Positions 4,386 through 62,370 of a DNA stretch of 64,000 nucleotides are shown piece after piece. The notes below the pieces were generated by a model. The model did not search any database. It worked only from the letters and a program-made list of their open reading frames with translations, and was not told where the DNA came from. Both the position numbers and the translations under genes were made by a program. How positions within the stretch are numbered: position 1 is the stretch's first letter; every line of letters begins with the position of its first letter. This DNA comes from Puniceicoccales bacterium (GTDB lineage: Bacteria; Verrucomicrobiota; Verrucomicrobiia; Opitutales; LL51), in NCBI GenBank assembly GCA_031270475.1, contig JAISXO010000034.1:29491-93490 (forward strand). The letters are read 5' to 3'.

Positions 4386-4474
4386 AACGAATATTATGCT
4401 ATAAATTATTAATTATATGTCAATAACATAAGAAATATATTTTAATAATTGATACAAATTTCCGCTATGAAATT

Positions 4475-7642: not shown

Positions 7643-8835
7643 ATGGGGATGGTGGCTTCTCTTTTCTATGCCTATCAGCATATTCTGCGCGTCATGCCGA
7701 GTATTATGCTTGCTGACATCATGTTACGGTTTCGCATAGATGATAGTAGTACGGTGGGGCAATTTTCAGGTGTTTACCATATTGGCTACTCTTTGTTTCA
7801 TCTTCCCATTGGTATTTTACTCGATCGATGTGGGCCTCAAAAAGTAATTCCTGGGTGCATATTGCTTTCAATTGCGGGCATTTTACGATTATTTGTATGG
7901 AGCATTGGATATGGTCTATTTTAGGGCAATTTGCTACGGGTATTGGATCATCGGCCGCCATTCTCGGTGTATTCAAAATTATCCGGAAGGCTTACAGTGA
8001 GGAGCGTTTTGGAAGAATGCTTAATTTTTCGGTCATGATCGGGTTACTTGGCGCAATTTATGGCGGGATGCCCATTCGCTATTTGTGTAAAGTTTTAGAT
8101 TGCCAAATGGTGATTGCGATCCTCGCTTTATTGGGAATATTACTGGCGTTTGTAACGTATCGGATTGTTCCTCCCATGGGCGATGCGGGTGATAAAGGGA
8201 AGCAATCGTCTCCGTTTGTCGGGATTGGATCCGTTTTAAAGAACGCAAAGGTTATGATTATTTGTTTAACGGCGGGGCTCATGGTTGGGCCACTGGAGGG
8301 ATTTGCCGACATTTGGGGACCTAAATTTTTGAATCAAGTTTTTCACATTGAGGCATCGAAGGCCAGTTTCATCCCATCGATGGTTTTCATTGGCATATGT
8401 TTTGGTGTTCCCGTTCTCAATTTCATTGCGGAAAAATCGAAAAGCTATTTAGGAACCATTATATTTTCGGGCCTACTGATGTTTATTATCTTTACGCTAC
8501 TGAGAATAGGACTCCATCCCGATACTACGGTGCTCGCAATCGAATTATTTTTAGTCGGCATATGTTCAGCGTATCAGATATTAGCCATTTACAAAGCATC
8601 GACCTATGTGCCTGAAAATGTGGCGGGCATTACGACGGCCATGGCCAATATGATCATTGTGATTTTTGGCTACGTGTTACACAGCATGATTGGAAGTGCA
8701 ATCGAACTTTTTGGCGGGATAGAAGTGGAGTCGGCTTTTCGGAGGAGTATTGCGGTTATTTCGGGAGCCTTATTACTAGGAATCGTCGGGTTTGAGGTGG
8801 TAGCCCGTATGGCCCAAAAATATGTTAAAAAGTAG
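7643..8835 (+). pseudogene. MFS transporter interrupted by a frameshift near 7900-7921
   Basis: ORF 7643..7924 carries MFS motif A (GILLDRCGPQKV). It continues sensibly only in the frame of ORF 7828..8835 (...SILGQFATGIGSSAAILG...), a -1 shift. This is either a genuine pseudogene or a 1-nt sequence error. Confidence 0.55.
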
Positions 8836-10250: not shown

Positions 10251-12008
10251 ATGCAGAATTTCGCGGAGCAGTGTGCGGATGTGGCTCGTTCGATCTTGAG
10301 TCACAATTTAAGTTATGTCAATGAAGATGGCGGTATTCGGTCCGTCGACTACGAAACGCTTATGGGTGATGAGGCAGCGCATATTGCGTTTGCGCTCGGC
10401 GAGTACTATCGCCTGACCCATGAGACGAGATTCTTGCAATATAATATCGTTGATCTTGCGGCGAAGATAATTGTTTTTCAGCTGGAAAATATACCGAAAA
10501 ATAACGATTGGAGCGGCTACATTGCCTTGGCTTTGTTATCTTTCGGGGTCGTCAAGGAGCGCAATCCTGTTTGGGAAAAATTTTCAGATGAGGTGCGGGT
10601 TCAATTGGACAATTTATTAATCCGCCGGGACAAGCTCAATGGCAACGGGTTTGCCTGTGCGATTGCGAAGGCCGTTGCGCGCCATGGATTACGCATCACG
10701 AAAAAGGACGAAACGGGTAAACTGGTCGATCGGTTACTAATTTATTGCGAAGAGAATTCAACGAGTGGATTTTTTGATAGTGATAATGGCAACGGTATCG
10801 GGGGGAATTTCGACGTCAAAGGGCTCTTTAATTTTTCATTTATTCGCCAGGCGCTCCACCTTCATACGGATAGTTTTTTCATTGAAAAAAAATTGCCCAG
10901 TCTGCGGACCCATGCGGAAAAATACATCGGTTTGATCCCCGATCTGATACGGGAAGATGGGACCTGTTGGGTGTATGGCGAAGGCGTCGGTGCCTATACG
11001 CAAATGTACTGTATTAGTACAATTTTGCAGGCTTTGCGGGACGGCTGGATTGCGCCGGATAAGCAGTCATTGTACGTCAACATAGTGCTCGACCTGTTCC
11101 AAAAATTTTTCTGTCACTACATCGACCAGGAAAATGGCTACATGATTATTCAGGATGGAGAGCGCTCTTCGGGGGCGGAACAAAGTACGATCCGGGCCAA
11201 TTTCGATGCGGTGCGCTATTTATGTCAGTGGTCACGGTTGGCGCGAAAGAGTTCGATTAACGCGAGTCGCATACGTCGTGCATCGGCGTTTAAACCGGGC
11301 AATCGCCTCGTCATTTTCAATAAGAATCTCAAGCGAGAGAATGGGCTATTTGTTTATCGCGATACTAAAACGGGTATGAATTTGCAATTGCCGCTCATTG
11401 GTGGTAATAGGCAATCGGACAGCGATTGCCTTGCCTTTCCGCATTGTCCTGGGGTATTTGATTGGCCGGCCGGTAAATATCTACCCATTTTGCAGCCGGA
11501 GCTGACCATAGAAGGCAAGCGCTACATTCCATCCTATTACGGCAAAAAATTGTCGACGGGGCTTGGCAATCGGAAGAGCATTGTTTTCGCCTACGAGCAG
11601 CCGGAGCTCATTACGGTGGAAGAGGAAATTGTTCCGGGGATAGCGAGTTGCAAAGTGGCGTGGATATTTTCCGAGGAGAAGATCACGTCGGAGTTCACCT
11701 ACGTTGTCAAAGATCGCGTACGCGTCGAATTCCTGCGGTATATGATTGCTCTGAGCGCGCCCCATTCGATTTACGGAGCCAATAATTTAGCTTTAGACGA
11801 GCGAAGTTTAGGGGCGATAGTGGAGCATGACGACATGCTATTGAGTTGGCAAGAGATTCGGGAGGTAGTCGACGACCCTGACTATCGGACGTGCTGCGGA
11901 AAAATCCATTATTTGCAGGAGTTATCGCGGAACTACCCTCTCATCATGCATCCGGGGCAGTCCTATAAATTGATCGTGAGTTTTACTCCGGGAGTGATTC
12001 GCATTTAA
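10251..12008 (+). CDS. hypothetical protein (585 aa), probably co-transcribed with rho
   Basis: Long uninterrupted ORF with SD-like GAGAGG 1 nt upstream of ATG. No family recognised by eye. Confidence 0.6.
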   Translation: MQNFAEQCADVARSILSHNLSYVNEDGGIRSVDYETLMGDEAAHIAFALGEYYRLTHETRFLQYNIVDLAAKIIVFQLENIPKNNDWSGYIALALLSFGVVKERNPVWEKFSDEVRVQLDNLLIRRDKLNGNGFACAIAKAVARHGLRITKKDETGKLVDRLLIYCEENSTSGFFDSDNGNGIGGNFDVKGLFNFSFIRQALHLHTDSFFIEKKLPSLRTHAEKYIGLIPDLIREDGTCWVYGEGVGAYTQMYCISTILQALRDGWIAPDKQSLYVNIVLDLFQKFFCHYIDQENGYMIIQDGERSSGAEQSTIRANFDAVRYLCQWSRLARKSSINASRIRRASAFKPGNRLVIFNKNLKRENGLFVYRDTKTGMNLQLPLIGGNRQSDSDCLAFPHCPGVFDWPAGKYLPILQPELTIEGKRYIPSYYGKKLSTGLGNRKSIVFAYEQPELITVEEEIVPGIASCKVAWIFSEEKITSEFTYVVKDRVRVEFLRYMIALSAPHSIYGANNLALDERSLGAIVEHDDMLLSWQEIREVVDDPDYRTCCGKIHYLQELSRNYPLIMHPGQSYKLIVSFTPGVIRI

Positions 12009-16552: not shown

Positions 16553-17056
16553 ATAAATTTCTAAAAGAACCTAAAAATATTGTCTGCATTTTTTATTAGT
16601 TCCTCTTTTTTCTCAAAGGTAAAAACATCGAAGAATAAAAGGTTATACATTTGTTCCCTAATGGTTTCTTTTCGATTTTACGGAAAAGGTTTGTTTCTCT
16701 CGATATCCAAATATTCCCGAAACCCACTAGCGAACATAGCAATCATCCTCTAAAACATTTCTAATTTCATTTTTCATTTTAGGGGAGATATTTGGCGACT
16801 CATAAATTTCTAAAAGGACCTAAAAGCATTGTCTGTATTTTTTATTAGTTCCTCTTTTTTCTCAAAGGTAAAAACATCGAAGAATAAAAGGTTATACATT
16901 TGTTCCCTAATGGTTTCTTTTTGATTTTACGGAAAAGGTTTGTTTCCCTCGATATCCAAATATTCCCGAAACCCACTAGCGAACATAGCAATCATCCTCT
17001 AAAACATTTCTAATTTCATTTTTCATTTTAGGGAAAATATTTGGCGACTCATAAAA
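16553..17056. repeat. tandem duplication, 2 x ~249 bp
   Basis: 16553-16801 and 16802-~17056 are near-identical by eye, with a few substitutions or indels. Each unit contains the 3' end of a minus-strand open frame (...PKMKNEIRNVLEDDCYVR*) plus ~170 bp downstream. Confidence 0.9.
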
Positions 17057-17263
17057 TTCTTCTAGTTGGTACATAGCGTTTGCTCTTTCCTTAGGCGGGA
17101 GAACATAGTTTTTTACATTTCCCAGGCATTTGCGACACTTGTTGTCTGCCGCTTGAATTACGAAGTTGTTTAACTTAAATCTTGCTGTTACATGAACTTT
17201 TCTAGATCCAAAGGCTTTCCTTCCTAAAACTTCCCCAGTATCCCCATCCAGAGCAGATGTCCT
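16976..17263 (-). pseudogene. start-less 95-codon open frame (gene remnant?)
   Basis: The frame is open from the TAA at 17264-17266 to the TAG at 16976-16978: RTSALDGDTGEVLGRKAF...NKCRKCLGNVKNYVLPPKERANAMYQLEEFYESPNIFPKMKNEIRNVLEDDCYVR. The first ATG is at codon 64. No family recognised. Confidence 0.3.
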
Positions 17264-24327: not shown

Positions 24328-25821
24328 CTATTCGAAACGGCCATTTTCCACGTGTACGAGCTCCCAGAGGCGGTAGCGTTGACTACCTTTGATAAAAATA
24401 TTTCCCTGAATTTTCCTTTGAAAGATTGCCTTTATTCGTTCTATTTCTTCGCCATAGAAAATTGTTAACGTTCCGGCGATTGCCTTTAATCGATTACAAA
24501 AAATTTTCATTTCTTCTCCGACGGCGAAAATTATTACGTTTTTTTTATTAAAAAAATATTCCGCCAGAACTTCATGATAATTTTGTGAGAATTCTCCCAA
24601 CTCGCGCATTCCGCCCAGGACGTAGGTATTATCGCCGGGGTATTTTTGATCAAAAAATTGCAGTGCGTCCATCATGGCAACTGGATTTGCGTTGTAGCAG
24701 TCGAGGTAAACTTCACGGCCTTGGAAATAGATTGTTTCGCCCCGCAATTTCCCGGGATTCCACAACAAAATACGTTTTTGGATGGTATCGTCGGAGAGTC
24801 CTAAAATTTTTACTGCCGTTGCTGCTTTGGCGAAGTTTTCTTTTTGCCCGGCGCTCATTTCCGGAAATCTGAAGGTGGTGCCATCGAAATAGGTTCCATG
24901 TAGCGTGATTTTATTTTCTTCCGTGGATTTCTTTTCTTTTGGGAATTGGAAGTGGGACCAGTTTTGGTGACTTTCTTTTTGATCGCTACTCATTTCCGGT
25001 GCCGTAAAAGTAGCTCCCGCGGAATAAGTTTCCTGCAAAGTGAATTTCTTTTCTTCCGTAGATTGATTTTTTTTGCCGCATTGGAAGTGAGTAAAGCGAG
25101 GGAAATGCGAAATGTTTTTCCCTTGACCAATGACGATACATTGAGCGGCGAGTCGGCGGAACGGCATATACCCAAGGCAACTTTCCGGAATGATCCCAAT
25201 TTTTTTGCGTGCGATAGTATTTTCTAAAATTTTGCATTTTTCATTGACAAGCTGTTCAAAATTCGTAAAATTCGCGATATGTGTGAGTGTGATCCCAATT
25301 GTAATAGAGATTTCTGGTTCGACTAAATCGATGATGCGATCCATTTCGCCAGGGTGGTCGATTCCGCCCTCGATAACGCCGAAACGCTGGGATTTCATGT
25401 GACTGAGCGTGAGTGTAACGCCGAGTTCATTGTTGAGATTTTCGCGTGTTCCGTAGGCGTCGTCGGCGAGCAGGAGTTTGAGCATATCTTTTGTGGAAGT
25501 TTTGCCGTAGCTGCCGGTGATAGCGATGATGGTATAACTTTTCCGGTGAATTTTTGCGAGTGTTCTAGCGGCTTCGAGAACGTCAGGGACGCGGAGTTGA
25601 GGCAGGGTGAGATTTTTATTGATCCGGTTAACGAGAGCGCAGCTTGCTCCATTTTGTTGGGCGTGAGCGAGAAAATCGTGACCATTCCGTTGGGCGGTGA
25701 GGGCAAGGAAACAATCGCCGGGTTGGAGGGTTCGCGTATCGTTCCAGAAGCCGTTAATTTCGTTCGGAAGCTGGCCATAAAACTCTATTTCTGGCAACCG
25801 TTGAAAGAGGGTTGTCTCCAT
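24328..25821 (-). CDS. murF: UDP-N-acetylmuramoyl-tripeptide--D-alanyl-D-alanine ligase, with an internal 45-aa duplication
   Basis: 497 aa. ITGSYGKTSTKDML Mur-ligase P-loop. Order of N-terminal, central and C-terminal domains is typical of MurF. Confidence 0.85.
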   Translation of the reverse strand: METTLFQRLPEIEFYGQLPNEINGFWNDTRTLQPGDCFLALTAQRNGHDFLAHAQQNGASCALVNRINKNLTLPQLRVPDVLEAARTLAKIHRKSYTIIAITGSYGKTSTKDMLKLLLADDAYGTRENLNNELGVTLTLSHMKSQRFGVIEGGIDHPGEMDRIIDLVEPEISITIGITLTHIANFTNFEQLVNEKCKILENTIARKKIGIIPESCLGYMPFRRLAAQCIVIGQGKNISHFPRFTHFQCGKKNQSTEEKKFTLQETYSAGATFTAPEMSSDQKESHQNWSHFQFPKEKKSTEENKITLHGTYFDGTTFRFPEMSAGQKENFAKAATAVKILGLSDDTIQKRILLWNPGKLRGETIYFQGREVYLDCYNANPVAMMDALQFFDQKYPGDNTYVLGGMRELGEFSQNYHEVLAEYFFNKKNVIIFAVGEEMKIFCNRLKAIAGTLTIFYGEEIERIKAIFQRKIQGNIFIKGSQRYRLWELVHVENGRFE

Positions 25822-25964
25822 AATGGTGGTAGTATAAATTAACGGAAAAAGGGAAGCGATAAAATTTTTTTCGAGTTAATCATTGATTCGGTTAGCGAGA
25901 GCGCAGTTTGCGTCATTTCGTTGTGCATGAGCAAGAAAAATTATAATTCGAGAATAAAAAGCAC

Positions 25965-26023
25965 TTGACAGAGTAAAAAATCGTCCAAGGCTAGGGAGCA
26001 GGGGAGAGAGTAAGCGAAGCGTC
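25965..26023 (+). promoter_or_regulatory. promoter-like module, degenerate orphan copy
   Basis: aataaaaagcaCTTGACA (25965-25970), 17 nt, AGGCTA, 5 nt, CAGGGGAGAGAGTAAGCGAAGCGTC. It points at the 3' end of the convergent rpoN. Confidence 0.4.
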
Positions 26024-26081
26024 TGGAGGTGGTCTTGATTGTAAAGTCATCGTCAATTTTCGTTAATTATTTATTTATTTT

Positions 26082-27458
26082 TTATATATATCGCCGCACG
26101 TTTGCCGACGGAATCGCAAGGAACGTACGATATTTAGTCACGGTTCGTCGAGCAATCCAAATGCCTTCATTTTGAAGTATTTGGGCGATTTTTTCATCGC
26201 TGAGCGGTTTGTTTTTGTTTTCATTTTTGATAATATTTTTAATACTCTCTCGGAGCGTGTTTTGTGCGATGAGGGAGCCATGATTACCGTGGGAAAAAAA
26301 GAAATCCAGCGGAATAATTCGATGTGGAATTTGAACATATTTATTTTTGACAGCCCGGGAAAGTGTTGTGGAGTGGATTTCGAGGCATTCCGCCACTTGT
26401 TTTTGACTCTGCGGACGAAGAAAATCACTGCCATTTTCTAGGAAGTCGCTTTGAAATTTCAAAATATATTCGGCAATTTTTTGTAAAGTTTCCCGGCGCT
26501 TGTGCAGCATCTTAACCAAAAATTGGGCTTGTTGTTTGTTCTCGGTAAAAAAATTACGGTCTTCGCGCTTTGATGAATGGGTAAACATCCTTAGGTAAAG
26601 GTCATTTATACGAATTTCCGGTGCACCGCGAACTTCGCAGCTCCAATGGCCGTCAATTTTTTGGAAAATAATTTCTGGAACAATCGCCGGATTGGCGTTG
26701 GGCATAATCGTTTTGAGCGGTGCAAAATTTAGCAATTTCAAGGGCACCAAAAGTGTACGCAATTCGGATGCCGTCTTACATAATTTTCTCCGCAATTTAG
26801 CGAATCGGCGATGCTCGAGGTCATCGAAATAGTGTGCAACGAGGTCATGGAGCGGCGTATTTTCCGGAATTTGCAACCGAAAGCAATCCTGCAAATCATG
26901 GGCACCAATCCCCTTCGGCGAAAGCGATCGCAATATCGCATAGGCTGTTTCAAAAACATTTTGCCGCGCATCGTCGGTCCGCGCATCGCAATTTTCCTCG
27001 CCATCCGGCCAAGAAATCCCGTACTGCTGAGCCGCATCCTCTGGCAAAAATCCGCGATCATCGAGGCTATTAATTAGCGTCGTCAGTGCCGTTTTTGTCG
27101 CCTCGTCCAAATCGGGAACCTGGGCGAGGAGGTAATCCTCAGGTGAATCTTCGGCACTAATATTTTCTAAAAAATTTGGATTGCTTTCTTCGTTATTTGG
27201 TATATCGCTCGTGCGCGCGCGCGCGCTCATATTAATAGTACTTTCCTTACTTGCACTCGCTGGAAAGCCGTAGGGAGCCGTGTCGGCGATGTCGAGAAGG
27301 GGGTTGCGCTGAATTTCCGCAGCAATGAGCCGGTAAAGTTCCTCGGTCGGCAATTGCAAAATGTCCAGAGAACGGAGCATGGACGGAGATAGTCGTTGGC
27401 TTTGAATTTGTAGGCGATCGTTCCTTAGGTCCACGGCGTAAGCATGGAGAGATACCAA
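26082..27458 (-). CDS. rpoN: RNA polymerase sigma-54 factor
   Basis: 458 aa. Gln/Leu-rich region I, HTH region, and RpoN box ARRTVTKYR near the C-terminus. Confidence 0.95.
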   Translation of the reverse strand: MVSLHAYAVDLRNDRLQIQSQRLSPSMLRSLDILQLPTEELYRLIAAEIQRNPLLDIADTAPYGFPASASKESTINMSARARTSDIPNNEESNPNFLENISAEDSPEDYLLAQVPDLDEATKTALTTLINSLDDRGFLPEDAAQQYGISWPDGEENCDARTDDARQNVFETAYAILRSLSPKGIGAHDLQDCFRLQIPENTPLHDLVAHYFDDLEHRRFAKLRRKLCKTASELRTLLVPLKLLNFAPLKTIMPNANPAIVPEIIFQKIDGHWSCEVRGAPEIRINDLYLRMFTHSSKREDRNFFTENKQQAQFLVKMLHKRRETLQKIAEYILKFQSDFLENGSDFLRPQSQKQVAECLEIHSTTLSRAVKNKYVQIPHRIIPLDFFFSHGNHGSLIAQNTLRESIKNIIKNENKNKPLSDEKIAQILQNEGIWIARRTVTKYRTFLAIPSANVRRYI

Positions 27459-27708
27459 CTTTTTTCAAGAAATGAAGTTAATTTTTGAGGGAATCAATCT
27501 GTGCCAAAAGAATTTCCGCAGCAATGAGCCGGTAAAGTTTCTCGGTCGGCAATTGCAAAATGTCCAGAGAACGGAGCATGGACGGAGATAGTCGTTGGCT
27601 TTGAATTTGTAGGCGATCGTTTCTTAGGTCCACGGCGTAAGCATGGAGAGATACCAACTTTTTTCAAGAAATGAAGTTAATTTTTGAGGGAATCAATCTG
27701 TACCAAAA
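27311..27708. repeat. tandem duplication, 2 x 199 bp, covering the rpoN 5' end and upstream region
   Basis: 27311-27509 and 27510-27708 differ at only a few positions by eye. The distal copy holds an rpoN start codon at 27657 and 49 identical or near-identical codons. Confidence 0.9.
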
Positions 27709-27809
27709 AAAAGCCTGAAGACTATTTCTAGGATAAAAAATATATACGTGACATAATAGACAGTGAGAAAATGCATTTGTCAAGATTTTTCTCAAAAAAT
27801 AAAGAATTT

Positions 27810-29081
27810 TTACGAAGAAAACCCTATTTTTTTCGAACCGACAAATTCTTGTAAAACTTCCGGTAAAAGTACGTTGCCATCCGCTTGGAGATTATTTTCT
27901 AAAATCGCTGCCAGAACGCGCGGTACGGCCAATCCCGAACCGTTGAGCGTGTGAACAAAGGTCGATTTCCCTGTTTTTTCGCGAAATTTAATCCCAGCGC
28001 GCCGTGCTTGAAAGTCCGTAAAATTACTGCAGCTGGAGACCTCGAGCCAGCGTTTCTGCCCTCCGGACCAGACCTCCAAATCGTACTGTTTGCTGTGTGA
28101 AAACCCGATGTCGCCGGTGCAAATGGAGAGCACGCGGTAAGGGAGATTCAATTTTTGGAGCAATTTTTCCGCATCGCGACGCAACTTTTCGAGTTCGGCG
28201 AAACTCTGATCGGGATGGGTCCACTTGACGAGCTCCACTTTATCGAACTGATGCAGGCGATTCAATCCGCGGACATCCTTGCCCCAACTCCCCGCTTCTC
28301 GGCGGAAACAGGGTGTGTAGCCGCAGCGATAAACGGGCAGCTCCGATTCCTCGAAAATTTCATCGCGGAAAAAATTCGTTACGGGGACTTCCGCCGTCGG
28401 AATCATGTAAAAATCGTCCGCTGCGTCGTGGTACATTTGGCCCTCCTTGTCGGGAAGTTGGCCGGTTGCGGTCGCGCTTTCGGCATTGACCATGATCGGC
28501 GCCATAAACTCGGTGTAGCCGTTGGCCTTGGCTTCATTGAGGAAAAATGTCACCAGGGCGCGTACGATGCGGGCGCCATCGCCGATGTAAAACGGGAAGC
28601 CGGCGCCGGTCACTTTGACGCCCCGCGGAAAATCGATCAGCCGGTTGAACCATGGAATATCGTAGTGCGGAACGGCGTTTTTGGAAATTTTTTCGATATC
28701 GCTCCAGGTTGTGACCGTCTGGTTATCATCCGCGTTTTTGCCGATTGGCACAGATTCGTGGGGCACATTGGGGATACTGAGGTAAAGCGCCTTCCATTTT
28801 TCTTCGATGGTTGCGAGTTGGCCATCGAGCGCCTTCGCTTCATCGGCGAACGTTCGCAGTTCAGCGATTTTCGTTTGAAATTCGGGCGATTTTTTATCGA
28901 GATTTTTGACGGTATCGTTGGCATTATTTTGTCGAGATTTCATTGATTCCAAGCGAGTAATGAGGTCGCGTCGTTCGCCATCGACAGCGAGGAAGGCATC
29001 GAGGTCGCAAGTGAATTTCTTTTTAGCGATTCCGGTTCGCACCTCGTCGCTATGTTCGCGGATAAATTTCAGATCTAACAT
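27810..29081 (-). CDS. serS: seryl-tRNA synthetase
   Basis: 423 aa. MLDLKFIREH start, coiled-coil arm, and class II motifs (...FRREAGS..., GSGLAVPR). Confidence 0.95.
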   Translation of the reverse strand: MLDLKFIREHSDEVRTGIAKKKFTCDLDAFLAVDGERRDLITRLESMKSRQNNANDTVKNLDKKSPEFQTKIAELRTFADEAKALDGQLATIEEKWKALYLSIPNVPHESVPIGKNADDNQTVTTWSDIEKISKNAVPHYDIPWFNRLIDFPRGVKVTGAGFPFYIGDGARIVRALVTFFLNEAKANGYTEFMAPIMVNAESATATGQLPDKEGQMYHDAADDFYMIPTAEVPVTNFFRDEIFEESELPVYRCGYTPCFRREAGSWGKDVRGLNRLHQFDKVELVKWTHPDQSFAELEKLRRDAEKLLQKLNLPYRVLSICTGDIGFSHSKQYDLEVWSGGQKRWLEVSSCSNFTDFQARRAGIKFREKTGKSTFVHTLNGSGLAVPRVLAAILENNLQADGNVLLPEVLQEFVGSKKIGFSS

Positions 29082-29087
29082 AATTTT

Positions 29088-29505
29088 AACTTTCCATTAA
29101 ATTTATTTATTTATTTTGTTTTTGGCGCCGAGTTTTTGGAGATCGTCGCATTGGGAGAAAAGGCCGCCGCGGCCGTTAATTTTCGGAATAATTTTATCAT
29201 CAAACTGCTCGTGCACCTTGCCAAAGAGCTTGTACAGTTCGCGCAATTCGTCAAGCAATCCACAAAATTTATCGTACAATTTTCCACTGAGGCCGGGTCA
29301 ACTTTCCATTAAATTTTCTTTTTTAATTGATTTTTTATTTTTGGCGCCGAGTTTTTGGAGATCGTCGCATTGGGAGAGAAGGCCGCCGCGGCCGTTGATT
29401 TTCGGAATAATTTTATCATCAAACTGCTCGTGCACCTTGCCAAAGAGCTTGTACAGTTCGCGCAATTCGTCAAGCAATCCACAAAATTTATCGTACAATT
29501 TTCCG
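29088..29505. repeat. tandem duplication, 2 x ~212-219 bp, covering the rmuC 3' end and the rmuC-serS junction
   Basis: 29088-29299 and 29300-~29505 are near-identical apart from an AT-rich indel patch. Both copies end (minus strand) with ...TTAATGGAAAGTT(A/G)A, encoding LMES-stop. Confidence 0.9.
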
Positions 29506-30608
29506 CCGCGATCGGCAATTTCCTGTGCATTGAGGTTTTGTTTTTCGACCTGCCAAATCGCTTGAATCAGTCTCAGTGTCAAAAATAGCGTGGAAGGATA
29601 AACAATAATTACATTTTTCTGACGAGCGTATTCACAGATATCTTTTTTATGGGCCGAGGGATTGGAGACGACGCTCGCGTAGGCCGATTCGATGGGTAAA
29701 AACATCAGTAAAAATGGGCAAATATCGATGGCATTTTTAATTTGGTGGTATTTGGCTACTTCGTCGATGTGTTTTTGAATGGAGGCAATATGTTGCTGGA
29801 AAAACCGTTCCCGTTCCTGGGGGTCGGGGGTATTGACCATGCGTTCGTAGGCGGAAAGGGAGACCTTTGCATCGATCAAAATCCACTGATTGCGCGGGAG
29901 TTTGATGAGGAAATCCGGTCGAGCGGCTCCGTCATCGATCTTCAATTCGAGCCCCCTCCCTTGCTTGACATAGTCGCCATTTTCTTCAGATAGCCCGGCC
30001 TGCTCGAGGAGATTTTCCAGTTGAACCTCGCCCCAATCTCCCTGAATCTTCGCGTTATTGCGCAGGGCATTGGTCAAATTTTCGGCTTCGTTATGCATTT
30101 TTTCCACGCTGTCGAGGAGCGATTTGAGGTGGATCGACAGTTCCGTGCGCGATTTTGTTTCCGGAGAGAAAATTTCGGTTTTGAAGGTAGAGAATTCTTT
30201 TTGGAGATCGACGATAAGGTGGCCGATTTCCTTTTGTGTCTCCTCGGAAAATTTTTGTTTTTTGGCTTCTAGAATTTCCTGGGAGAGGCTGGAGAGCTCG
30301 AGTTTGAGTTGCTCTCGATGTTTGAGGATTTCGCTACGAGCGGTTTCGATAGCAATTTTTTCACCGGAGAGCCGTTGAAAATTTTCAAAAAGCTGATTGA
30401 ATTCCTGAGTTTTCTGTAAAAACTGCGCTTCAATGGCGGATAATCTCCCTTGTAATTCGGCCTTTTGCGTGGCGATTTCGGTGAAGCGCTCTTGGATATC
30501 CTTGAGTTGTGCAGCCAATGCGTTACATTCACTGCGATATTTATTAGCAAAATAGCAGATAATTCCTAGGAAAAACCCACAAGAAATAAGACACAGCGCA
30601 ATGATCAT
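29298..30608 (-). CDS. rmuC: DNA recombination protein RmuC
   Basis: 436 aa. N-terminal TM helix, long coiled coil, and RmuC nuclease-like C-domain (RPDFLIKLP..., IDAKVSL). Confidence 0.9.
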   Translation of the reverse strand: MIIALCLISCGFFLGIICYFANKYRSECNALAAQLKDIQERFTEIATQKAELQGRLSAIEAQFLQKTQEFNQLFENFQRLSGEKIAIETARSEILKHREQLKLELSSLSQEILEAKKQKFSEETQKEIGHLIVDLQKEFSTFKTEIFSPETKSRTELSIHLKSLLDSVEKMHNEAENLTNALRNNAKIQGDWGEVQLENLLEQAGLSEENGDYVKQGRGLELKIDDGAARPDFLIKLPRNQWILIDAKVSLSAYERMVNTPDPQERERFFQQHIASIQKHIDEVAKYHQIKNAIDICPFLLMFLPIESAYASVVSNPSAHKKDICEYARQKNVIIVYPSTLFLTLRLIQAIWQVEKQNLNAQEIADRGGKLYDKFCGLLDELRELYKLFGKVHEQFDDKIIPKINGRGGLLSQCDDLQKLGAKNKKSIKKENLMES

Positions 30609-30935
30609 GACAAAATATTATCTAAACCGCCAAAGAAATTTATTCAAATCCAAAAAATTTCCCCCAAAAAAGCTTGACATTAATTAAAAGCGCTGAAATA
30701 CTTGCTGCCAAGCGCTCTTGGATATCCTTGAGTTGTGCAGCCAATGCGTTACATTCACTGCGATATTTATTAGCAAAATAGCAGATAATTCCTAGGAAAA
30801 ACCCACAAAAAATAAGACACAGCACAATGATCATGACAAAATATTATCTAAACCGCCAAAGAAAATTATTCAAATCTAAAAAAAAATCCCAAAAAAGCTT
30901 GACATTAATTAAAAGCGCTGAAATACTCGCTACCA
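30484..30935. repeat. tandem duplication, 2 x 226 bp, covering the rmuC 5' end and the divergent promoter region
   Basis: 30484-30709 and 30710-30935 are near-identical. ORF 30640..30834(-) is the decoy rmuC 5' fragment; its first 41 aa match RmuC closely. Confidence 0.9.
30899..30927 (+). promoter_or_regulatory. candidate sigma70-type promoter (a duplicate sits at ~30673-30701)
   Basis: aaaaaagcTTGACA (30899-30904), 17 nt, AATACT (30922-30927). Lies 11 nt upstream of ATG 30938. Confidence 0.5.
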
Positions 30936-34611: not shown

Positions 34612-34820
34612 TTTTTCTCAGATCAATAAATTATATCCGCAAAATTTATCAAGAAAGATAGGCCGTCGATTTGCAATTTTCTATGACATTCATATTTATT
34701 TTATATTTTTAGGCGAAATTTACGAACAATTTTTCCAAAATGCTTCCAAGGGTATTGTCATTTAATATTTCGTCTTTAGAAAAGCGTTATTTTCTCTGGT
34801 ATAATCCCTAGCCACCTAAC

Positions 34821-34915
34821 TTCTTTCAATGTATTGTAAAGCGCCAGAGATAGACGAATCGTTCCGCCAATGCCGAGCGCATGCATCAACGAATTACGCA
34901 TAGTGATATCCGGTG
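34821..34915 (-). pseudogene. displaced partial copy of the sufS 3' region
   Basis: 34821-34915 matches sufS 35077-35172 with an offset of 256 bp. The first ~80 bp are highly similar by eye and the rest is weaker. It lies beyond the sufS stop codon. Confidence 0.75.
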
Positions 34916-35010
34916 TTTTCGGTCACTCAAAGTTTTTTAAATGGAATTCACGGAGAATAAAATTGCTAGAAAATTAAATCGAACGTGGGCGATAGGCGGG
35001 CGGTGCATTG

Positions 35011-36234
35011 TTATCGATGGGAATTTTTCTTAAAAATATGGATAATTTTGTCCATGGCAGTGACCAGTTGCTCAATTTCTTCCAATGTGTTGTAAGGCGC
35101 CAGAGATAGACGAACCGTTCCGCCAATGCCGAGCGCATGCATCAACGGTTGCGCACAGTGATGCCCGGCTCGTACCGCAATTCCCTCGCTATCAAATATA
35201 CTGGCCACATCGTGGGGATGCGCGGATCGATGAATGAATGAAATAATTCCCGTTCGCTGATTGTTCGGCTTGAGAACCTCAATGGACGAATTTTGTCCCA
35301 AAATTTCCAAAACATGCCCCTTGAGTCCCTCGCCATATCTTTGTGCCTCAATCCAATCTATCTTCCCGAGAAATCGAATCGCTTCCCGTAGCCCCGTAAC
35401 TCCAACAACATTCGGCGTACCTGCTTCAAAACGAGTAGGAATCTCGCGGAATAAGGCCGGTTGATCGAAGGCTACGCGATCGACAATCCCTCCGCCTAAG
35501 TGGTACGGCTGAAAATGCTCCAGGTGTTCGGCGCGGCCATAGAGAAATCCAATTCCCATCGGCCCAAAAGCCTTGTGCGCGGAAGTTGCAAAGAAATCAC
35601 ACTCCATCTCCCGTACATCAATCGGTCCGTGTCCCAATGATTGCGCGCCATCGACGATGCAAAGCGCTCCAACCCTATGCGCCATCTGGGCAATTTTTTT
35701 TATCGGATTAATCGTCCCTAAAACGTTTCCAATGTGCGCAATGGAAACAATCCGCGTGCGCTCCGAAAGCTTGTGCCCAAAATCATTCCCGTCGAAATCG
35801 CCCGCTTCCGTCATCGATACAATGCGAATCGTCGCCCTAAGCCGCTGCCATGGAAGAATATTAGCGTGGTGTTCCTGGACAAATAAAATAATTTCATCTT
35901 CCGTTGTGAGAGATGCGAATTGGGATGCTAGAAAATTGATGCCTTCCGTCGTCCCCGAATTGAGAATGATTTCCCGTGGCTCGCGAGCGTTGATCCAATG
36001 GGCGATTTCTCGGCGTGTAGACTCGTAAATTTCCTCGGCCTTCGCACTGAGATCATATATCCCGCGGTGGACGTTAGCGTTAGTTGTGCGCAGATGGTAG
36101 GCCATTGCTCCGATGACACGCTCCGGTAATTGAGTTGTGGCCGCGTTATCGAAGTAAATCAGAGGCTTTTCAAAACGATTGTGACCACTTAAGATCGGGA
36201 ATTCCTGGCGAAAGGCGTGAACATCGAAACTCAT
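35011..36234 (-). CDS. sufS: cysteine desulfurase (SufS/CsdA class V aminotransferase)
   Basis: 407 aa. HHANILPWQ, SAHKAFGPMGIG (PLP lysine) and RAGHHCAQP motifs. Confidence 0.9.
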   Translation of the reverse strand: MSFDVHAFRQEFPILSGHNRFEKPLIYFDNAATTQLPERVIGAMAYHLRTTNANVHRGIYDLSAKAEEIYESTRREIAHWINAREPREIILNSGTTEGINFLASQFASLTTEDEIILFVQEHHANILPWQRLRATIRIVSMTEAGDFDGNDFGHKLSERTRIVSIAHIGNVLGTINPIKKIAQMAHRVGALCIVDGAQSLGHGPIDVREMECDFFATSAHKAFGPMGIGFLYGRAEHLEHFQPYHLGGGIVDRVAFDQPALFREIPTRFEAGTPNVVGVTGLREAIRFLGKIDWIEAQRYGEGLKGHVLEILGQNSSIEVLKPNNQRTGIISFIHRSAHPHDVASIFDSEGIAVRAGHHCAQPLMHALGIGGTVRLSLAPYNTLEEIEQLVTAMDKIIHIFKKNSHR

Positions 36235-36366: not shown

Positions 36367-36426
36367 ACGCGCCGCTTGCTCCCACCCTCTACCTTCCAGT
36401 CTTGAAAGAATTTCAGGACCTATCAA
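36367..36426 (-). promoter_or_regulatory. promoter-like module with conserved motif (faces sufS)
   Basis: The minus strand reads CTTGATA (36426-36421), 17 nt, AAGACT, 5 nt, GTAGAGGGTGGGAGCAAGCGGCGCGT. Lies 133 nt upstream of the sufS ATG. Confidence 0.55.
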
Positions 36427-36478
36427 GTCGTTTCTGAAAAGATAATTTTCAAAAATAAAAATATTTTGTATTTTCTTC

Positions 36479-36506
36479 TTGACATAATTCATAAAATCGC
36501 GACAAT
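36479..36506 (+). promoter_or_regulatory. candidate promoter of the pilin-like gene
   Basis: TTGACA (36479-36484), 16 nt, GACAAT (36501-36506). Divergent from the module at 36367-36426. Confidence 0.45.
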
Positions 36507-36628
36507 CGCTTCATGATTGATTTGCAAAGCAACAAAGCGTAAAAAGTAAAAGTAAATCTTTTACGTTAGTTGAGATTGTTTTTACTATTGCCATCATCGG
36601 CATTTTACTAGCCATTCTTCCGCCGGCA

Positions 36629-37330
36629 ATGAGTGCCATCAAACTCGGCGCACAAAAGGCAAAGGATCAATCCAACTTGCAAAAAATTGCCGAAGCTTGG
36701 CGCGGAGCCGTGATCGATCGCGGCTGGATAATCGATGGTGAAAGTGGCGGAAATATAAAATCTACCGATTTTGCAGAGCAATTGGCCGGACGAGATAATG
36801 GGAAAAGTATCTCGGATATGATTTTGAATGATCCCTATGTTTGGATTTCTCCAGGCGATAAATATGCCTCAAGAATTCAAAAAGAATCACTTTGTATTTT
36901 AGTGGATGATTCTGTCCGATTCGCTGACGCTTTTATGGAAGTTAATGGCAATTTTATGGTCTCGGGAAAATACCTACTTAGTTATTGCATCGTATGTAGG
37001 TTGCCCGGGAATGTTCCTCTCGATACGACGCCGCTCGGTTTTACGCGTGGACTTAACAAAAATGGAAAGTGGGATGAAAAAGCTAGCCTATATGGCTCGA
37101 AGGGCGGCTATGTCGTTTTCTGCGATGGTCACGTCGCGTGGTTTGACGGCAGTAAGCCAGCACGATTCTTGAAATGGGGTGGGTCGGGTGTTACACGACT
37201 GATATTTGTGAAGCAGTTCCTGGTGGCACTTGGATTACATGTGCCCACGATTATGATAGAATTCAAGCAGCTTACTGGGGCGAAGATGCTAAAGCCATCC
37301 TCAGTTCCGCCGGTATCGGTTGATGATTGA
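36629..37330 (+). CDS. prepilin-type / H-X9-DG family protein (N-terminus apparently frameshifted)
   Basis: C-terminal DGHVAWFDG fits H-X9-DG. In-frame upstream sequence (36560-36628) encodes SFTLVEIVFTIAIIGILLAILPPA but has no in-frame start. The ATG at 36513 is in another frame and stops at 36540. Confidence 0.6.
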   Translation: MSAIKLGAQKAKDQSNLQKIAEAWRGAVIDRGWIIDGESGGNIKSTDFAEQLAGRDNGKSISDMILNDPYVWISPGDKYASRIQKESLCILVDDSVRFADAFMEVNGNFMVSGKYLLSYCIVCRLPGNVPLDTTPLGFTRGLNKNGKWDEKASLYGSKGGYVVFCDGHVAWFDGSKPARFLKWGGSGVTRLIFVKQFLVALGLHVPTIMIEFKQLTGAKMLKPSSVPPVSVDD

Positions 37331-37335
37331 AAATT

Positions 37336-37613
37336 TTCACGTGCCGCTTGCTCCCACCCTTGAAAGAATTTCAGGGCCTGTCAAGTCGTTTCTGAAAAGA
37401 TAATTTTCAAAAATAAAAATATTTTGTATTTTCTTTTTGACATAATTCATAAAATCGCGACAATCACTTTATGGTCGATTTGCAACGCAACAAAGCGTAA
37501 GGAGCAAAAGTAAATCTTTTACATTGATTGGAATCGTTTTTATTATTGCCATCACCGGCATTTTACATGCCGCTTGCTCCCACCCTTGAAAGAATTTCAG
37601 TGCCTGTCAAGTG
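37336..37613. repeat. second copy of the divergent-promoter / pilin 5' segment, flanked by two short-form modules
   Basis: 37336-37567 matches 36365-36608. Short modules at 37339-37384 and 37565-37610 (minus) read TTGACA, 17 nt, AAGGGTGGGAGCAAGCGGCA(C/T)GT, which is a 13-nt deletion relative to the long form. Confidence 0.85.
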
Positions 37614-37854: not shown

Positions 37855-39054
37855 TTGCCGAAAAATACGTTTATTCCCATGGACGCGCTCGTCAAACTCG
37901 TCGACGGTATCGATACAATTGTTGGACAGGAGTCCCTATCGGAACGCCTATCGCAAAAAAAAATCCTGAAAGTGAAACTTGGTGTCGATCCAACTCGCCC
38001 CGATTTGACCTTTGGCCATATGGTCGTTTTCAATAAATTGCGCCAGTTTCAGGATCTCGGCCACGAAGCAATTTTGCTGATCGGCGACCATACTGCTACC
38101 ATTGGCGATCCTTCCGGTCGTTCTTCGACGCGCCCGGTGTTGACTACCCAAGAGGTCGACCAAAATGCCAAAACTTACCTCGAGCAGGCCTTCAAAATTA
38201 TCGATCCCGAGAGGACGACGATTCGGCGCAATAGCGAGTGGTTTCGAAGGATGACGTTCGACGATATGCTCATTATTGCCCGTAAAATGACGGTTGCGCG
38301 GATGCTTGAGCGGGACGATTTTGCGAAACGCTACCGCGAAAATGAGCCCATTTCCATTGTCGAGTTTTTATATCCTTTGATGCAGGGGTATGATTCGGTC
38401 ATGCTCGAAGCCGACGTCGAGCTTGGCGGAACGGATCAATTTTTCAATTTATTGGTTGGCCGCGCGCTCCAAAGGGATTATGGCCAGCGGGAGCAGATTG
38501 TCATCACGATGCCGCTCATCGTCGGTCTTGATGGGAAGCGTAAAATGTCAAAAAGTTACGATAATTACATTTCATTTAACCATTCTTCAAAGGATATGTT
38601 TGGGCGGATCATGTCGATTCCGGACGAAGTGATGTGGACCTATTTCAAGTTATTATTGGAGTATTCTGACGGGGCGATCGAGGCGTTGAAGGGGGGGCAT
38701 CCCATGGATGCGAAAAAATTTTTGGCTCGATCGTTGGTGGCGCGATTTTACGGTCCAGAAGTCGGGGAGCAAGAGTTAGCGGATTTTGAGGCGGTATTTT
38801 CGCATGGAGAAATCCCGGAAGCGATGCCGGAATTTTCGTTACAAGCGATGGCAAAGGATCCGGTTACTTTAGCCGACGCGATGGCATATTCGCAATTTTT
38901 TGAAAGCAATCGAGAGATTCGCCGACTCATTGAGCAAGGAGCTGTCAAAGTTAATGGGAAGAGTGAAAAGAATTTTAAGTTTCCTTTACGATCCGACCGC
39001 TGTCCCCATGTCATTCAGTCTGGCAAGCGCATATTTTTAAAAGTTATTCCGTAG
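37855..39054 (+). CDS. tyrS: tyrosyl-tRNA synthetase
   Basis: 399 aa. Class I motifs (TFGHMV HIGH-like, KMSKS). C-terminal S4-like domain (IRRLIEQGAVKVNG). Alternative start at 37879. Confidence 0.9.
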   Translation: MPKNTFIPMDALVKLVDGIDTIVGQESLSERLSQKKILKVKLGVDPTRPDLTFGHMVVFNKLRQFQDLGHEAILLIGDHTATIGDPSGRSSTRPVLTTQEVDQNAKTYLEQAFKIIDPERTTIRRNSEWFRRMTFDDMLIIARKMTVARMLERDDFAKRYRENEPISIVEFLYPLMQGYDSVMLEADVELGGTDQFFNLLVGRALQRDYGQREQIVITMPLIVGLDGKRKMSKSYDNYISFNHSSKDMFGRIMSIPDEVMWTYFKLLLEYSDGAIEALKGGHPMDAKKFLARSLVARFYGPEVGEQELADFEAVFSHGEIPEAMPEFSLQAMAKDPVTLADAMAYSQFFESNREIRRLIEQGAVKVNGKSEKNFKFPLRSDRCPHVIQSGKRIFLKVIP

Positions 39055-39505
39055 AAAATAATTAGTGCGTTTATGGCTAATTATTTTTTGCATTATCGCA
39101 GTCGAAAAATTATTTTTTTGTAACGGCGATATATCTTTAAATAGATTTTGAGGCGGTATTGCACACAGAGAAATTGAAAAAAAACAAAAAGGATTTTAAG
39201 ATTCCTTTATAATTCGACCGCTGTCCCCATATTATTCAGTCCGGCAAGCGCATATTTTTAAAAGTTATTCCGTAGGAAATAATTAATGTGTTTACGGTTA
39301 ATTATTTTTTGCATTATCGCAATCGAAAAATTATTTTTTTGTAACGGCGATATATCTTTAAATAGATTTTGAGGCGGTATTGCACACAGAGAAATTGAAA
39401 AAAACAAAAAGAATTTTAAGATCCTTTTACGATTCGACCGCTGTCCCCATGTCATTCGGTCTGGCAAGCGCATACTTTTAAAAGTTATTCCGTAGGAAAA
39501 TGATT
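38972..39505. repeat. tandem repeat, ~2.4 x ~221 bp, reiterating the tyrS 3' end
   Basis: ATTTTAAG...CGACCGCTGTCCCCAT...GGCAAGCGCATA..TTTTAAAAGTTATTCCGTAG recurs at 38972, 39193 and 39413. The units also carry AGATTTTGAGGCGGTATT, which matches tyrS at ~38785. Confidence 0.85.
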
Positions 39506-39545
39506 AATTTATTTACAATTGAATCTTTTTTTTTACACTAATGCA

Positions 39546-47043: not shown

Positions 47044-47668
47044 ATTTTTTTTGTATTACGAATTGTTGATGTTTTTTTTATTCTGTTCGGGGTGTACACT
47101 TTTCAAGACGACTCCCGATCGGACGCGTCTATTTGACATTGGATTTCGGGGGACGCAATCGGCGATGTCTTCGGTAGACAGTGCAAAAATTTGTCTTATT
47201 TTGGGGAGTTTTCCGGATTATCTCGATGGATCACCGATCATCACGAAGATTGGTGAGCATGAATTGAAAAATAATCCGCGCTATCGTTGGGCCAAACCGC
47301 TTTCGGAAACGATTCTTTACATTGTAAAACGCAGTATTTTGCAAAGTTTTTCGAAAGTTTACGTCTATGAATTCCCCAAAGATACCATGGATAAGATTGA
47401 TTTTACGCTATGTTTAGACGTCGATGGGCTGGAGATTTGCGAAGTGACGCAGCGGATTATCTTTAAAGGGACGTGGACTTTTTTAGATGCGAAGCAACGG
47501 AATATAACCCATGCTCCATTTGAATTTTGCGAGTCATTTGATGATTTTTCGGATCGTTACGGAGAAATAGTGGCCAAGGTGGAGCAGGTTATCCATCATT
47601 TAGGCGACGCGATTGTAAAGGAAATGGATCTTATTTTTCTAAAAAGAATAACGGGAAATAATCCCTAG
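47033..47668 (+). CDS. ABC-transport auxiliary lipoprotein (PqiC/YmbA-like)
   Basis: MKTRFFLYYELLMFFLFCSGC lipobox. Its position directly after an MCE gene is typical. Confidence 0.6.
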   Translation: MKTRFFLYYELLMFFLFCSGCTLFKTTPDRTRLFDIGFRGTQSAMSSVDSAKICLILGSFPDYLDGSPIITKIGEHELKNNPRYRWAKPLSETILYIVKRSILQSFSKVYVYEFPKDTMDKIDFTLCLDVDGLEICEVTQRIIFKGTWTFLDAKQRNITHAPFEFCESFDDFSDRYGEIVAKVEQVIHHLGDAIVKEMDLIFLKRITGNNP

Positions 47669-62364: not shown

Positions 62365-62370
62365 TTGATT

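Follow-up and report, generated by a model that had tools for sequence, protein, structure and literature searches.

Tandem duplication of short segments across gene boundaries is best known from Ehrlichia ruminantium, in which the tandem repeats are said by Collins et al. to be linked to truncated gene fragments. The N-terminal region I of sigma-54 (RpoN) is the activator-responsive inhibitory region of this sigma factor. A peptide comprising region I residues 1–56 was reportedly shown by Gallegos, Cannon & Buck to be active when supplied in trans in vitro in the E. coli system, inhibiting activator-dependent transcription. To our knowledge, no natural stand-alone region I regulator has been described. 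In the 64-kb stretch of Puniceicoccales DNA analysed here (hereafter, the window), the 5′ end of rpoN is duplicated in tandem, and the extra copy carries a short ORF (the stub) for most of region I. We consider it probable that this is a young, lineage-specific duplication and that the stub is an unselected, probably expressed by-product of a duplication habit of the clade.

The repeat is direct and head-to-tail, with a 199-nt unit present in 2.0 copies in exact register (TRF score 775, far above chance), and thus bears out the 199-bp duplication at 27311–27708 noted by the first-pass annotation. The proximal copy (27311–27509, minus strand) and the distal copy (27510–27708, minus strand) are 98.5% identical and differ by 3 transitions (27341C/27540T, 27423C/27622T, and 27503G/27702A on the plus strand) at offsets 30, 112, and 192 of the unit. 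The junction between 27509 and 27510, which reads AAATTC/TTTTGG on the minus strand, is blunt: homology between the copies stops at the unit ends, with 0 extra bases on either side. Read on the minus strand, the unit consists of 51 nt 5′ of a TTG codon, the 49 rpoN codons that begin there, and 1 further nt. The earlier description of the copied segment as the rpoN upstream region plus 49 codons is correct when counted from the TTG; counted from the probable GTG start, the unit holds 75 nt of upstream sequence and rpoN codons 1–41. The contig is metagenome-assembled, and the copy number of a tandem repeat is a typical assembler error, which could mean that a repeat was collapsed or expanded, or that strain variants were stitched in tandem. 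However, a genome that lacked the duplication would not contain the junction sequence, so that reads would have to support it, the 3 well-spaced differences should make the copies resolvable by long k-mers, and similar duplications, varied in period and age, are found across the window as well as in relatives that were assembled independently (other samples and NCBI MAGs). An assembly artefact is thus extremely unlikely.

The intact rpoN gene (26082–27434, minus strand) encodes 450 residues from the GTG at 27434. The mechanically called ORF (26082–27458) opens 8 codons earlier at a TTG at 27458 and comprises 458 residues, whereas 13 orthologs begin at V/MDLR, eight codons inside the TTG; because of this agreement, GTG 27434 is the likely start of rpoN and GTG 27633 that of the distal ORF. 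The distal ORF had been assigned an ATG at 27657, which was not borne out, as the codon at 27657–27655 is TTG. The TTG codons at 27657 and 27458 were ruled out as start codons, since each sits in the spacer between the −35-like and −10-like elements described below and the orthologs begin 8 codons later. Full-length RpoN has the three-part architecture of sigma-54, that is to say, region I (the Pfam AID domain, 38.1 bits), the core-binding domain (CBD, 98.9 bits), and the DNA-binding domain (DBD, 162 bits), all above the Pfam cut-offs, and its alignment to sigma-54 chains of solved structure runs from end to end (E = 1.5e-47). With all 3 Pfam domains present and the promoter-like element at its native spacing, the intact rpoN is undisturbed by the duplication.

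Cross-species alignment showed that a promoter-like pattern (TTGAAA, 16 nt, nAnnnT, 6 or 7 nt, start codon) is conserved in seven related loci; the same geometry was found in L005, L006, L007, L008, and L012, and L001 was read by eye. The pattern falls within the 199-nt unit and is present in both copies. The proximal element (27441–27468, minus strand) is composed of TTGAAA (27468–27463), a 16-nt spacer, and CATGCT (27446–27441), followed by 6 nt to GTG 27434; the distal element (27640–27667, minus strand) is composed of TTGAAA (27667–27662) and CATGCT (27645–27640), followed by 6 nt to GTG 27633. A consensus promoter and terminator scan of 27200–27900, which returned one weak match inside serS and zero terminators, missed both elements, whose −10 (CATGCT) is weak and which were seen only through the cross-species alignment. 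We infer a promoter from this conservation and geometry, and the short distance to the start codon would imply a leaderless or near-leaderless rpoN mRNA. The duplication was suggested to push the real promoter of rpoN 199 bp away; this is probably incorrect, as the conserved element was copied together with the unit and its −35/−10-like parts keep their native distance to rpoN. Upstream, an unduplicated remainder of the spacer (27709–27809, minus strand) separates the distal copy from serS, the seryl-tRNA synthetase gene (27810–29081, minus strand). Read by eye, and unscored by the terminator scan, this remainder shows a TTGACA...TATTAT match whose spacer is 19 nt long; it also holds a weak hairpin (AGTCTTCAGGCT), and the T8 run behind this hairpin stops precisely at the distal duplication boundary.

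Two other kinds of element were sought in the unit. A sigma-54 promoter (TGGCAC-N5-TTGC) made at the junction by a T-to-C change was rejected for its wrong spacing: in such promoters, 10 nt separate a GG at −24 from a GC at −12, whereas the proximal copy reads TGGCACAGATTGATTCC, in which the −12 dinucleotide is TT rather than GC. No structured RNA was found in the 199-nt unit, and Rfam found one tRNA only in the whole window.

The rpoN duplication is one of ten local tandem duplications in the window, which defines the scope of the census for this genome; their offsets range from 198 to 299 nt and their identities from 84% to 98.5%. Nine of the ten touch a gene terminus, namely, the 5′ ends of rpoN, rmuC, and murF, the 3′ ends of rmuC, a class-V aminotransferase gene, tyrS, and ychF, the convergent ends of an ABC-auxiliary/MFS gene pair, and the 3′ flank of an unnamed ORF (36629–37330). 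The tenth lies in a gene-free spacer between convergent RsmD-like and radical-SAM/HemN-like genes. Roughly one quarter of the gene borders in the window bear a duplicate. Only one case was found inside a gene: murF has an in-frame repeat of 135 nt (45 codons), and its product has 497 residues here and 440–448 residues in relatives; we take this case as a survivorship filter acting on the duplications. The rmuC duplication copied the first ~42 codons and left a 64-aa stub ORF (30640–30834), whereas the old copy of the murF 5′ end is reduced to a 58-nt remnant. Each duplication is built from its own local sequence at an unrelated locus with no family shared across loci, which excludes a mobile or REP-like element. 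A diversity-generating retroelement, in which mismatches would fall only on adenines of the template repeat and a reverse transcriptase would be close by, was also rejected: the pooled mismatches (65 transitions and 16 transversions) run in both directions, a scan of 44 ORFs in the window (each 100 aa or longer) found no reverse transcriptase domain, and the duplicated gene ends include 5′ as well as 3′ ones. Microhomology at the junctions ranges from 0 to 10 nt, and no shared junction motif or constant microhomology of the kind left by site-specific cutting was found among the junctions. The tight size range and the blunt junctions could be signs of some specific defect in replication or repair.

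The gene order rmuC-serS-rpoN-murF-autotransporter is kept in relatives. The duplication is young: the copies have diverged by 1.5%, and it is absent from every relative examined. Relatives at 56–76% RpoN identity have independent duplications of their own. Six duplications of this kind were counted in ~45 kb of relatives (L001 and L005–L008), compared with 0 in ~46 kb of unrelated loci. At the serS-rpoN border, (i) L005 has three units of ~277 nt, of which the upstream ones are degenerate, with decayed promoters and starts; (ii) L001 has a ~126-nt duplicate; (iii) L012 has a frameshifted, stop-containing fragment of rpoN 1–156 fused to a serS 3′ fragment next to an IS; and (iv) no duplication is present upstream of rpoN in L006, L007, or L008. 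Two further by-products of this type are a 54-aa ORF in L008, which is a copy of the SerRS N-terminus, and a 49-aa chimera in L005, which joins the first 6 residues of rpoN to the SerRS C-terminus; the stubs of L005, L008, and L012 have been called as genes by JGI or NCBI. A genome scan for close relatives returned only a 56%-identical one and no strain-level relatives, and all matches in a metagenome scan were at most 29% identical. Judging from MAG names, the clade appears to be of a termite- or insect-gut type. Our literature search found no paper on repeats of this Puniceicoccales clade.

These comparisons bear on whether the duplication was selected for an effect in cis, with tandem promoters and an upstream ORF altering the dosage or translation of rpoN through interference, read-through, or re-initiation. 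The entire promoter-like element is duplicated with no terminator detected by the scan between the copies, and the independent border duplications in L005, L001, and L012 could hint at recurrent selection. Recurrence is, however, expected from the high background of duplicated gene borders, and the promoters and starts of the older copies in L005 are decayed. Moreover, if the rpoN mRNA is leaderless, read-through from the distal promoter would offer an internal GTG lacking a Shine-Dalgarno sequence and should yield little protein. A selected cis effect is thus unlikely.

From the GTG, the stub spans 27478–27633 on the minus strand and encodes 51 residues; from the TTG at 27657 the ORF (27478–27657) reads MVSLHAYAVDLRNDRLQIQSQRLSPSMLRSLDILQLPTEKLYRLIAAEI followed by LLAQIDSLKN and a TAA stop, so that translation bore out the 59-aa frame with ten extra codons described by the first-pass annotation, from TTG rather than ATG. 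The NCBI annotation of this contig (99,911 nt) has an identical 51-aa ORF (hypothetical protein LBR92_03095 [Puniceicoccales bacterium]; P0121). The 51-aa product consists of sigma-54 region I residues 1–41 with an E32K substitution, followed by 10 unrelated residues (LLAQIDSLKN) read from copied upstream DNA, and its stop codon is 44 nt ahead of the rpoN start. Residues 1–41, among them the leucine patch LQL...EL, align with region I of E. coli without gaps, and the numbering matches E. coli sigma-54 one-to-one over residues 12–48. The 59-aa ORF matches positions 6–38 of the 46 positions of Pfam AID with 23.7 bits, against a cut-off of 23.8 bits; its AID domain stops short of the conserved QRNPLLD end, and the Pfam scan found no CBD or DBD. 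The stub is therefore a fragment and not a sigma factor, being without the core- and DNA-binding domains. The sole non-synonymous difference between the copies is the E-to-K change in the distal copy, a charge reversal. This site aligns with E. coli sigma-54 E32; 12 of 13 orthologs have E there, and the remaining one has D. The change distinguishes the stub peptide (MDLRNDRLQIQSQR...), which has TEK, from RpoN, which has TEE. An uninterrupted frame and start signals identical to those of rpoN, both seen in the stub, are also expected of a newly recruited regulator at birth.

A functional trans-acting stub would compete with sigma-54 region I for an AAA+ activator or for its docking site, which comprises the region I site on the holoenzyme and the −12 fork junction, and would thereby damp or buffer activation. 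The first-pass annotation had proposed such interference by a separately expressed fragment. Expression is made plausible by the promoter-like element and by a start codon that is the same as that of rpoN, and the part of region I that was retained, leucine patch included, is collinear with its E. coli counterpart. The reported in vitro activity of the region I peptide further means that an expressed stub need not be inert. By contrast, a selected function is unsupported. When the stub was searched against 5.8 billion proteins, it matched nothing but itself and one further short protein with AID alone (P0122), which is a frameshifted pseudogene fragment, and no conserved stand-alone region I gene emerged in related genomes. 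The window holds ten equivalent events, this duplication included, that affect unrelated genes, E32K falls at a near-invariant residue, the peptide lacks the QRNPLLD end and scores just below the Pfam cut-off, and no sigma-54 activator gene was found within the window. We thus hold a trans-acting function to be very unlikely. A more specific version, to which we give hardly any credence, is that of a newborn gene under its own leaderless rpoN promoter, whose region I (1–41) peptide titrates the activator or docking site and tunes sigma-54-dependent transcription in a bacterium that is symbiont-like; the duplications of the clade would then be a steady source of expressed N-terminal fragments, because promoters directly adjoin start codons.

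The most likely reading of the extra copy is that of a harmless by-product, rather than of a new regulator, because such copies of ~200–300 bases occur at many gene borders in this bacterium and its relatives. The inert by-product, also considered in the first-pass annotation, proved the better-supported of its two alternatives, given the youth of the copy, the E-to-K change at a near-invariant residue, and the similar duplications that hit housekeeping genes. Under this by-product reading, segments of ~200–300 nt would be copied head to tail by a replication or illegitimate-recombination error that uses 0–10 nt of microhomology and has a preferred span of this length, and the copies would survive where they are harmless, namely, across gene borders, inside spacers, or in frame. 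The segment copied here extends from just past the terminator-like T-run of serS to rpoN codon 41 (from GTG). It includes the complete promoter-like element and the start codon, so that the intact rpoN would retain its native promoter and start, while a second promoter upstream would drive the 51-codon stub (region I 1–41, 10 junk residues, and a stop). The stub is probably transcribed and probably translated, and its transcript would read on into rpoN because no terminator was detected. The peptide would have no selected role and should decay as older copies have done. Such decay is seen in the fall of identities from 98.5% to 84%, the murF remnant, the frameshifted L012 fragment, the degenerate L005 units, and the E32K of the stub, a single substitution that we interpret as relaxed constraint; the term unselected draws on the genomic context and this one substitution.

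For sigma-54 biology the finding is probably minor, as the duplication leaves both the intact gene and its control element as they were, and the peptide looks accidental. The rpoN case nevertheless illustrates cleanly that, where transcripts are leaderless, one small tandem duplication can be enough to make a whole mini-gene at once, with its promoter, its start, and a folded functional subdomain. More broadly, this uncultured Puniceicoccales clade accumulates ~200–300-nt tandem duplications, at about one quarter of gene borders by the window figure, which inflate spacers and seed spurious hypothetical proteins in annotations.

Comparison with E. ruminantium showed that the likeness is one of pattern. 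In that genome (Collins et al. 2005 PNAS 102:838; Frutos et al. 2006 J Bacteriol 188:2533), many head-to-tail repeats of ~150–300 nt are reported in or edging non-coding regions, where they stretch the intergenic spacers and reduce coding density. Here too, a head-to-tail repeat lies over a gene border with one gene intact, many comparable repeats occur in the 64-kb window, the copies decay, gene ends are left behind in truncated form along with small new ORFs, and coding density is ~81% (ORFs of at least 100 aa). E. ruminantium belongs to the Alphaproteobacteria, whereas the present host belongs to the Verrucomicrobiota (order Puniceicoccales), its G+C content is 44%, and its units are mostly in 2 copies (up to 3.5 in L007). 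Like partial-gene tandem duplicates and pseudogene stubs in general, the stub is a short ORF derived from a copied gene start, which PGAP calls as a 51-aa hypothetical protein, but the rpoN copy stands out for its youth and for its completeness, with a promoter-like element, a start, and nearly all of a functional subdomain. Sigma-54 from which region I has been deleted ('bypass' sigma-54) is a related system. As in the region I-in-trans system of E. coli and Klebsiella, which uses purified region I (Gallegos, Cannon & Buck 1999, J Biol Chem 274:25285), region I is encoded as a separate polypeptide; in contrast to the 1–56 peptide used in vitro, the stub carries residues 1–41 with E32K and 10 unrelated residues. 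If expressed, the stub would be a natural counterpart of the region I-in-trans experiment.

The rpoN ORF (26082–27458, minus strand) encodes a complete sigma-54, which matched the Pfam region I (activator-interacting domain, AID), core-binding, and DNA-binding domains with scores of 38.1, 98.9, and 162 bits, respectively, and could be aligned from end to end with sigma-54 chains of solved structure. Reading of the minus strand over 25600–28400, combined with a repeat search, revealed that the 5′ end of the gene is included in a perfect-register tandem duplication of a 199-nt unit, with a proximal copy (27311–27509) adjoining the intact rpoN and a distal copy (27510–27708) upstream of it (98.5% identity, TRF score 775). 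This search and a direct comparison of the copies bear out the 199-bp duplication described in the first-pass annotation. The copies differ at 3 sites, all of them transitions (27341C/27540T, 27423C/27622T, and 27503G/27702A). Homology stops exactly at both ends of the unit, with zero bases extending beyond it, and the junction is therefore blunt and free of microhomology. By eye, the distal end of the duplication lies exactly past a weak hairpin and a T8 run located 3′ of serS. An assembly artefact is very unlikely: the junction sequence would need support from reads, three well-separated positions distinguish the copies, and comparable repeats occur in independently assembled relatives. The only non-coding difference between the copies (27503, G on the plus strand and C on the minus strand) gives the proximal copy TGGCAC in place of TGGTAC, a sequence similar to a sigma-54 −24 box; a sigma-54 promoter at this site was ruled out because the −12 position has no GC.

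The distal copy contains an ORF (27478–27657, minus strand) that translates exactly as given in the first-pass annotation, whose sole error of observation was to place an ATG at 27657, where the codon is TTG. The 13 RpoN orthologs (33–77% identity) start with V/MDLR, which corresponds to codon 9 of the mechanically called window ORF. NCBI, in annotating this 99,911-nt contig, begins the distal ORF at the equivalent GTG (27478–27633) and lists it as the 51-residue [quoted passage not shown] (P0121; hereafter the stub). Alignment of the serS–rpoN spacers among relatives showed them to be unalignable save for an invariant CTTGAAAA box. The corresponding promoter-like geometry upstream of rpoN places TTGAAA 16 nt ahead of a hexamer whose second and sixth bases are A and T, respectively, with a further 6–7 nt before a GTG or ATG start. 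A pattern search found it in both window copies, namely at 27441–27468 (minus strand; −35 at 27468–27463, −10 at 27446–27441, GTG at 27434) and 27640–27667 (minus strand; −35 at 27667–27662, −10 at 27645–27640, GTG at 27633), and in 5 loci of related genomes (L005, 920–956, with TTGGAA instead of TTGAAA; L006, 461–497; L007, 447–484; L008, 9967–10003; and L012, 190–226); a sixth locus (L001, about 1877–1913) fits when read by eye. The hexamer takes the forms CATGCT, TATATT, CATACT, CATGAT, CACAAT, and CACGAT. The window form (CATGCT) is weak, and a consensus promoter scan did not report the element. As a rule, transcription begins about 7 nt past the −10 hexamer; given the 6–7 nt between hexamer and start codon, the rpoN mRNA is predicted to be leaderless or near-leaderless across the clade, often with GTG first. 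The TTG codons at 27458 and 27657 lie inside the promoter spacer and the orthologs begin at codon 9, which argues that TTG is not the start codon.

The 199-nt unit takes in the entire promoter-like element; the stub thus comes with a promoter copy of its own, and the native promoter of the intact rpoN remains at its original distance. The proposal that the duplication pushed the real rpoN promoter 199 bp away is thus probably wrong, the element having been copied along with the unit. A selected effect of the duplication in cis on rpoN expression is unlikely. The stub may plausibly be expressed, given start signals identical to those of rpoN, and its transcription would be expected to continue into rpoN, as a scan around the duplication detected no terminator.

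Counted from the GTG, the region I numbering matches that of Escherichia coli sigma-54 without gaps in the alignment to solved chains. The stub comprises region I residues 1–41, including the LQL..EL patch, followed by 10 unrelated residues from copied upstream DNA, and its TAA lies 44 nt ahead of the real rpoN start. The conserved QRNPLLD stretch that closes the AID is missing, and the stub scored 23.7 bits against a Pfam cut-off of 23.8. Two coding differences separate the copies: one is synonymous (AGG/AGA), and the other replaces E32 with K in the stub only, at a position occupied by E in 12 of the 13 RpoN orthologs and by D in the remaining one. The stub was ruled out as a sigma factor, having neither a core-binding nor a DNA-binding domain, and it is not a member of a known anti-sigma or anti-activator family. 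The first-pass annotation had offered two readings, a region I peptide acting on sigma-54 activation and an inert by-product. For the former there is a published precedent, in which region I supplied in trans reportedly inhibited activator-dependent transcription in vitro. We nevertheless regard a trans-acting stub as very unlikely and a selected function as unsupported, for the following reasons: (i) the ORF is conserved in no relative; (ii) it carries a derived charge reversal (E32K) at a near-invariant residue; (iii) its C-terminus is truncated; and (iv) equivalent events at genes unrelated to rpoN form a large background.

Self-comparison of the 64-kb window revealed 10 local tandem duplications with offsets of 198–299 nt and identities of 84–98.5%, affecting about one quarter of the gene borders. 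Besides that at the rpoN 5′ end (starting at 27311, period 199), they are located in the gene-free spacer between convergent RsmD-like and radical-SAM/HemN-like genes (16553–17060, period 249), at a murF 5′ remnant (25618–25939, period 264), at the rmuC 3′ (29088–29515, period 212–219) and 5′ (30484–30935, period 226) ends, at the 3′ end of a class-V aminotransferase gene (34818–35162, period 256), in the 3′ flank of the unnamed ORF 36629–37330 (37333–37612, period 227), at the tyrS 3′ end (38966–39533, period 221, 2.5 copies), at an ABC-auxiliary/MFS convergent pair (47563–47959, period 198), and at the ychF 3′ end (62294–62657, period 299). These 9 have periods of 198–299 nt and are 84–97% identical, and 8 of them lie at termini of unrelated genes; the genes on either side are ordinary housekeeping genes. 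At the rmuC 5′ end, the 226-nt duplication created a 64-residue ORF (30640–30834, minus strand) made up of RmuC residues 1 to ~42, the transmembrane N-terminus of that protein, followed by read-through junk.

A mobile element was ruled out as the source, as every repeat is built from its own local sequence. The pooled mismatches between copies (65 transitions and 16 transversions) are not biased toward adenines, and none of the window ORFs scanned encodes a reverse transcriptase, which together rule out a diversity-generating retroelement (DGR). The junctions share no common motif and have 0–10 nt of microhomology. Within genes, the sole case found is a 135-nt (45-codon) repeat that keeps the reading frame of murF (24328–25821, minus strand) at 24930–25110; its DNA identity is ~82% over 51 nt, and it lengthens MurF to 497 residues, versus 440–448 in relatives. 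That this case is in frame fits a filter in which duplications survive only where genes stay intact, a filter that explains neither the tight size range nor the mostly blunt junctions.

The window also holds repeats of other kinds. A 69-nt element with two GC-rich hairpins (GGCCTGGAGC..GCTCCAGGCC and GGAGCC..GGCTCC) occurs just 3′ of genes at two places 60 kb apart (749–817 and 61149–61217, 91% identical), and also at 59424–59461; it has the appearance of a REP-like or terminator module. An adjacent pair of paralogous S9-peptidase-like genes (2742–4385 and 4552–6405, both minus strand) shares a ~165-nt block at the 5′ ends (4275–4441 and 6295–6462, 95% identical), a pattern suggestive of either gene conversion in the recent past or tandem gene duplication with a 2-kb unit. 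A 228-nt direct repeat (36386–36613 and 37344–37571, 88–91% identical, 958-nt spacing) flanks the unannotated 233-residue ORF 36629–37330 on both sides, near which lies a further partial copy at a 227-nt offset (37560–37612); these repeats may form a larger duplication unit carrying a whole small gene.

The host is a member of a Puniceicoccales (Verrucomicrobiota) clade that is uncultured and has been recorded in metagenomes, in which the gene order rmuC-serS-rpoN-murF-autotransporter is kept. The 199-nt rpoN duplication was found in none of the relatives compared, and several have duplications of their own at or near the serS–rpoN border. L005 (184–983) carries three ~277-nt units. In each, the 3′ end of serS and a terminator hairpin are joined to the promoter-like box and ~11 codons of rpoN; both upstream units have degenerated, and one yields a 49-residue chimeric ORF. 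L001 (1616–1865) has a ~126-nt duplicate within the spacer, in L007 (1853–2720) the interval from rpoN to murF holds 3.5 units of 252 nt, and L008 carries one duplication at the serS 5′ end (8384–8705) and another after rpoN (11346–11650), the former yielding a 54-residue ORF that copies the SerRS N-terminus. The events in L001, L005, L007, and L008 are independent within the same syntenic block, and the RmuC and SerRS ORFs are exact analogues of the rpoN stub. In L012 (171–760), a decayed rpoN 5′ fragment (residues 8–156) with a frameshift and an in-frame stop is fused to a serS 3′ fragment and adjoins an IS (DDE transposase gene, 834–1649); JGI calls it an 87-residue “sigma54-like protein.” Local repeats at distances of 0–3 kb have essentially all their offsets at 198–299 nt in the window and 126–281 nt in relatives. 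A uniform count gave 6 duplications in ~45 kb of clade loci versus 0 in ~46 kb of unrelated control loci.

The rpoN duplication is most probably a recent by-product, neutral or close to it, of a tandem-duplication process that operates across the clade, and the by-product reading of the first-pass annotation stands to that extent. The significance of the stub itself is modest; that of the clade-wide duplication habit it exposes is somewhat greater.

The closest known phenomenon is seen in Ehrlichia ruminantium, where tandem repeats drive the growth and shrinkage of non-coding DNA and are reportedly associated with truncated gene fragments. A review states that the non-coding regions of this species both expand and contract via such repeats. 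By analogy with E. ruminantium, (i) the rpoN repeat is arranged head-to-tail across a gene border; (ii) many repeat loci occur in one genome, here seen within a 64-kb window; and (iii) the extra copies decay.
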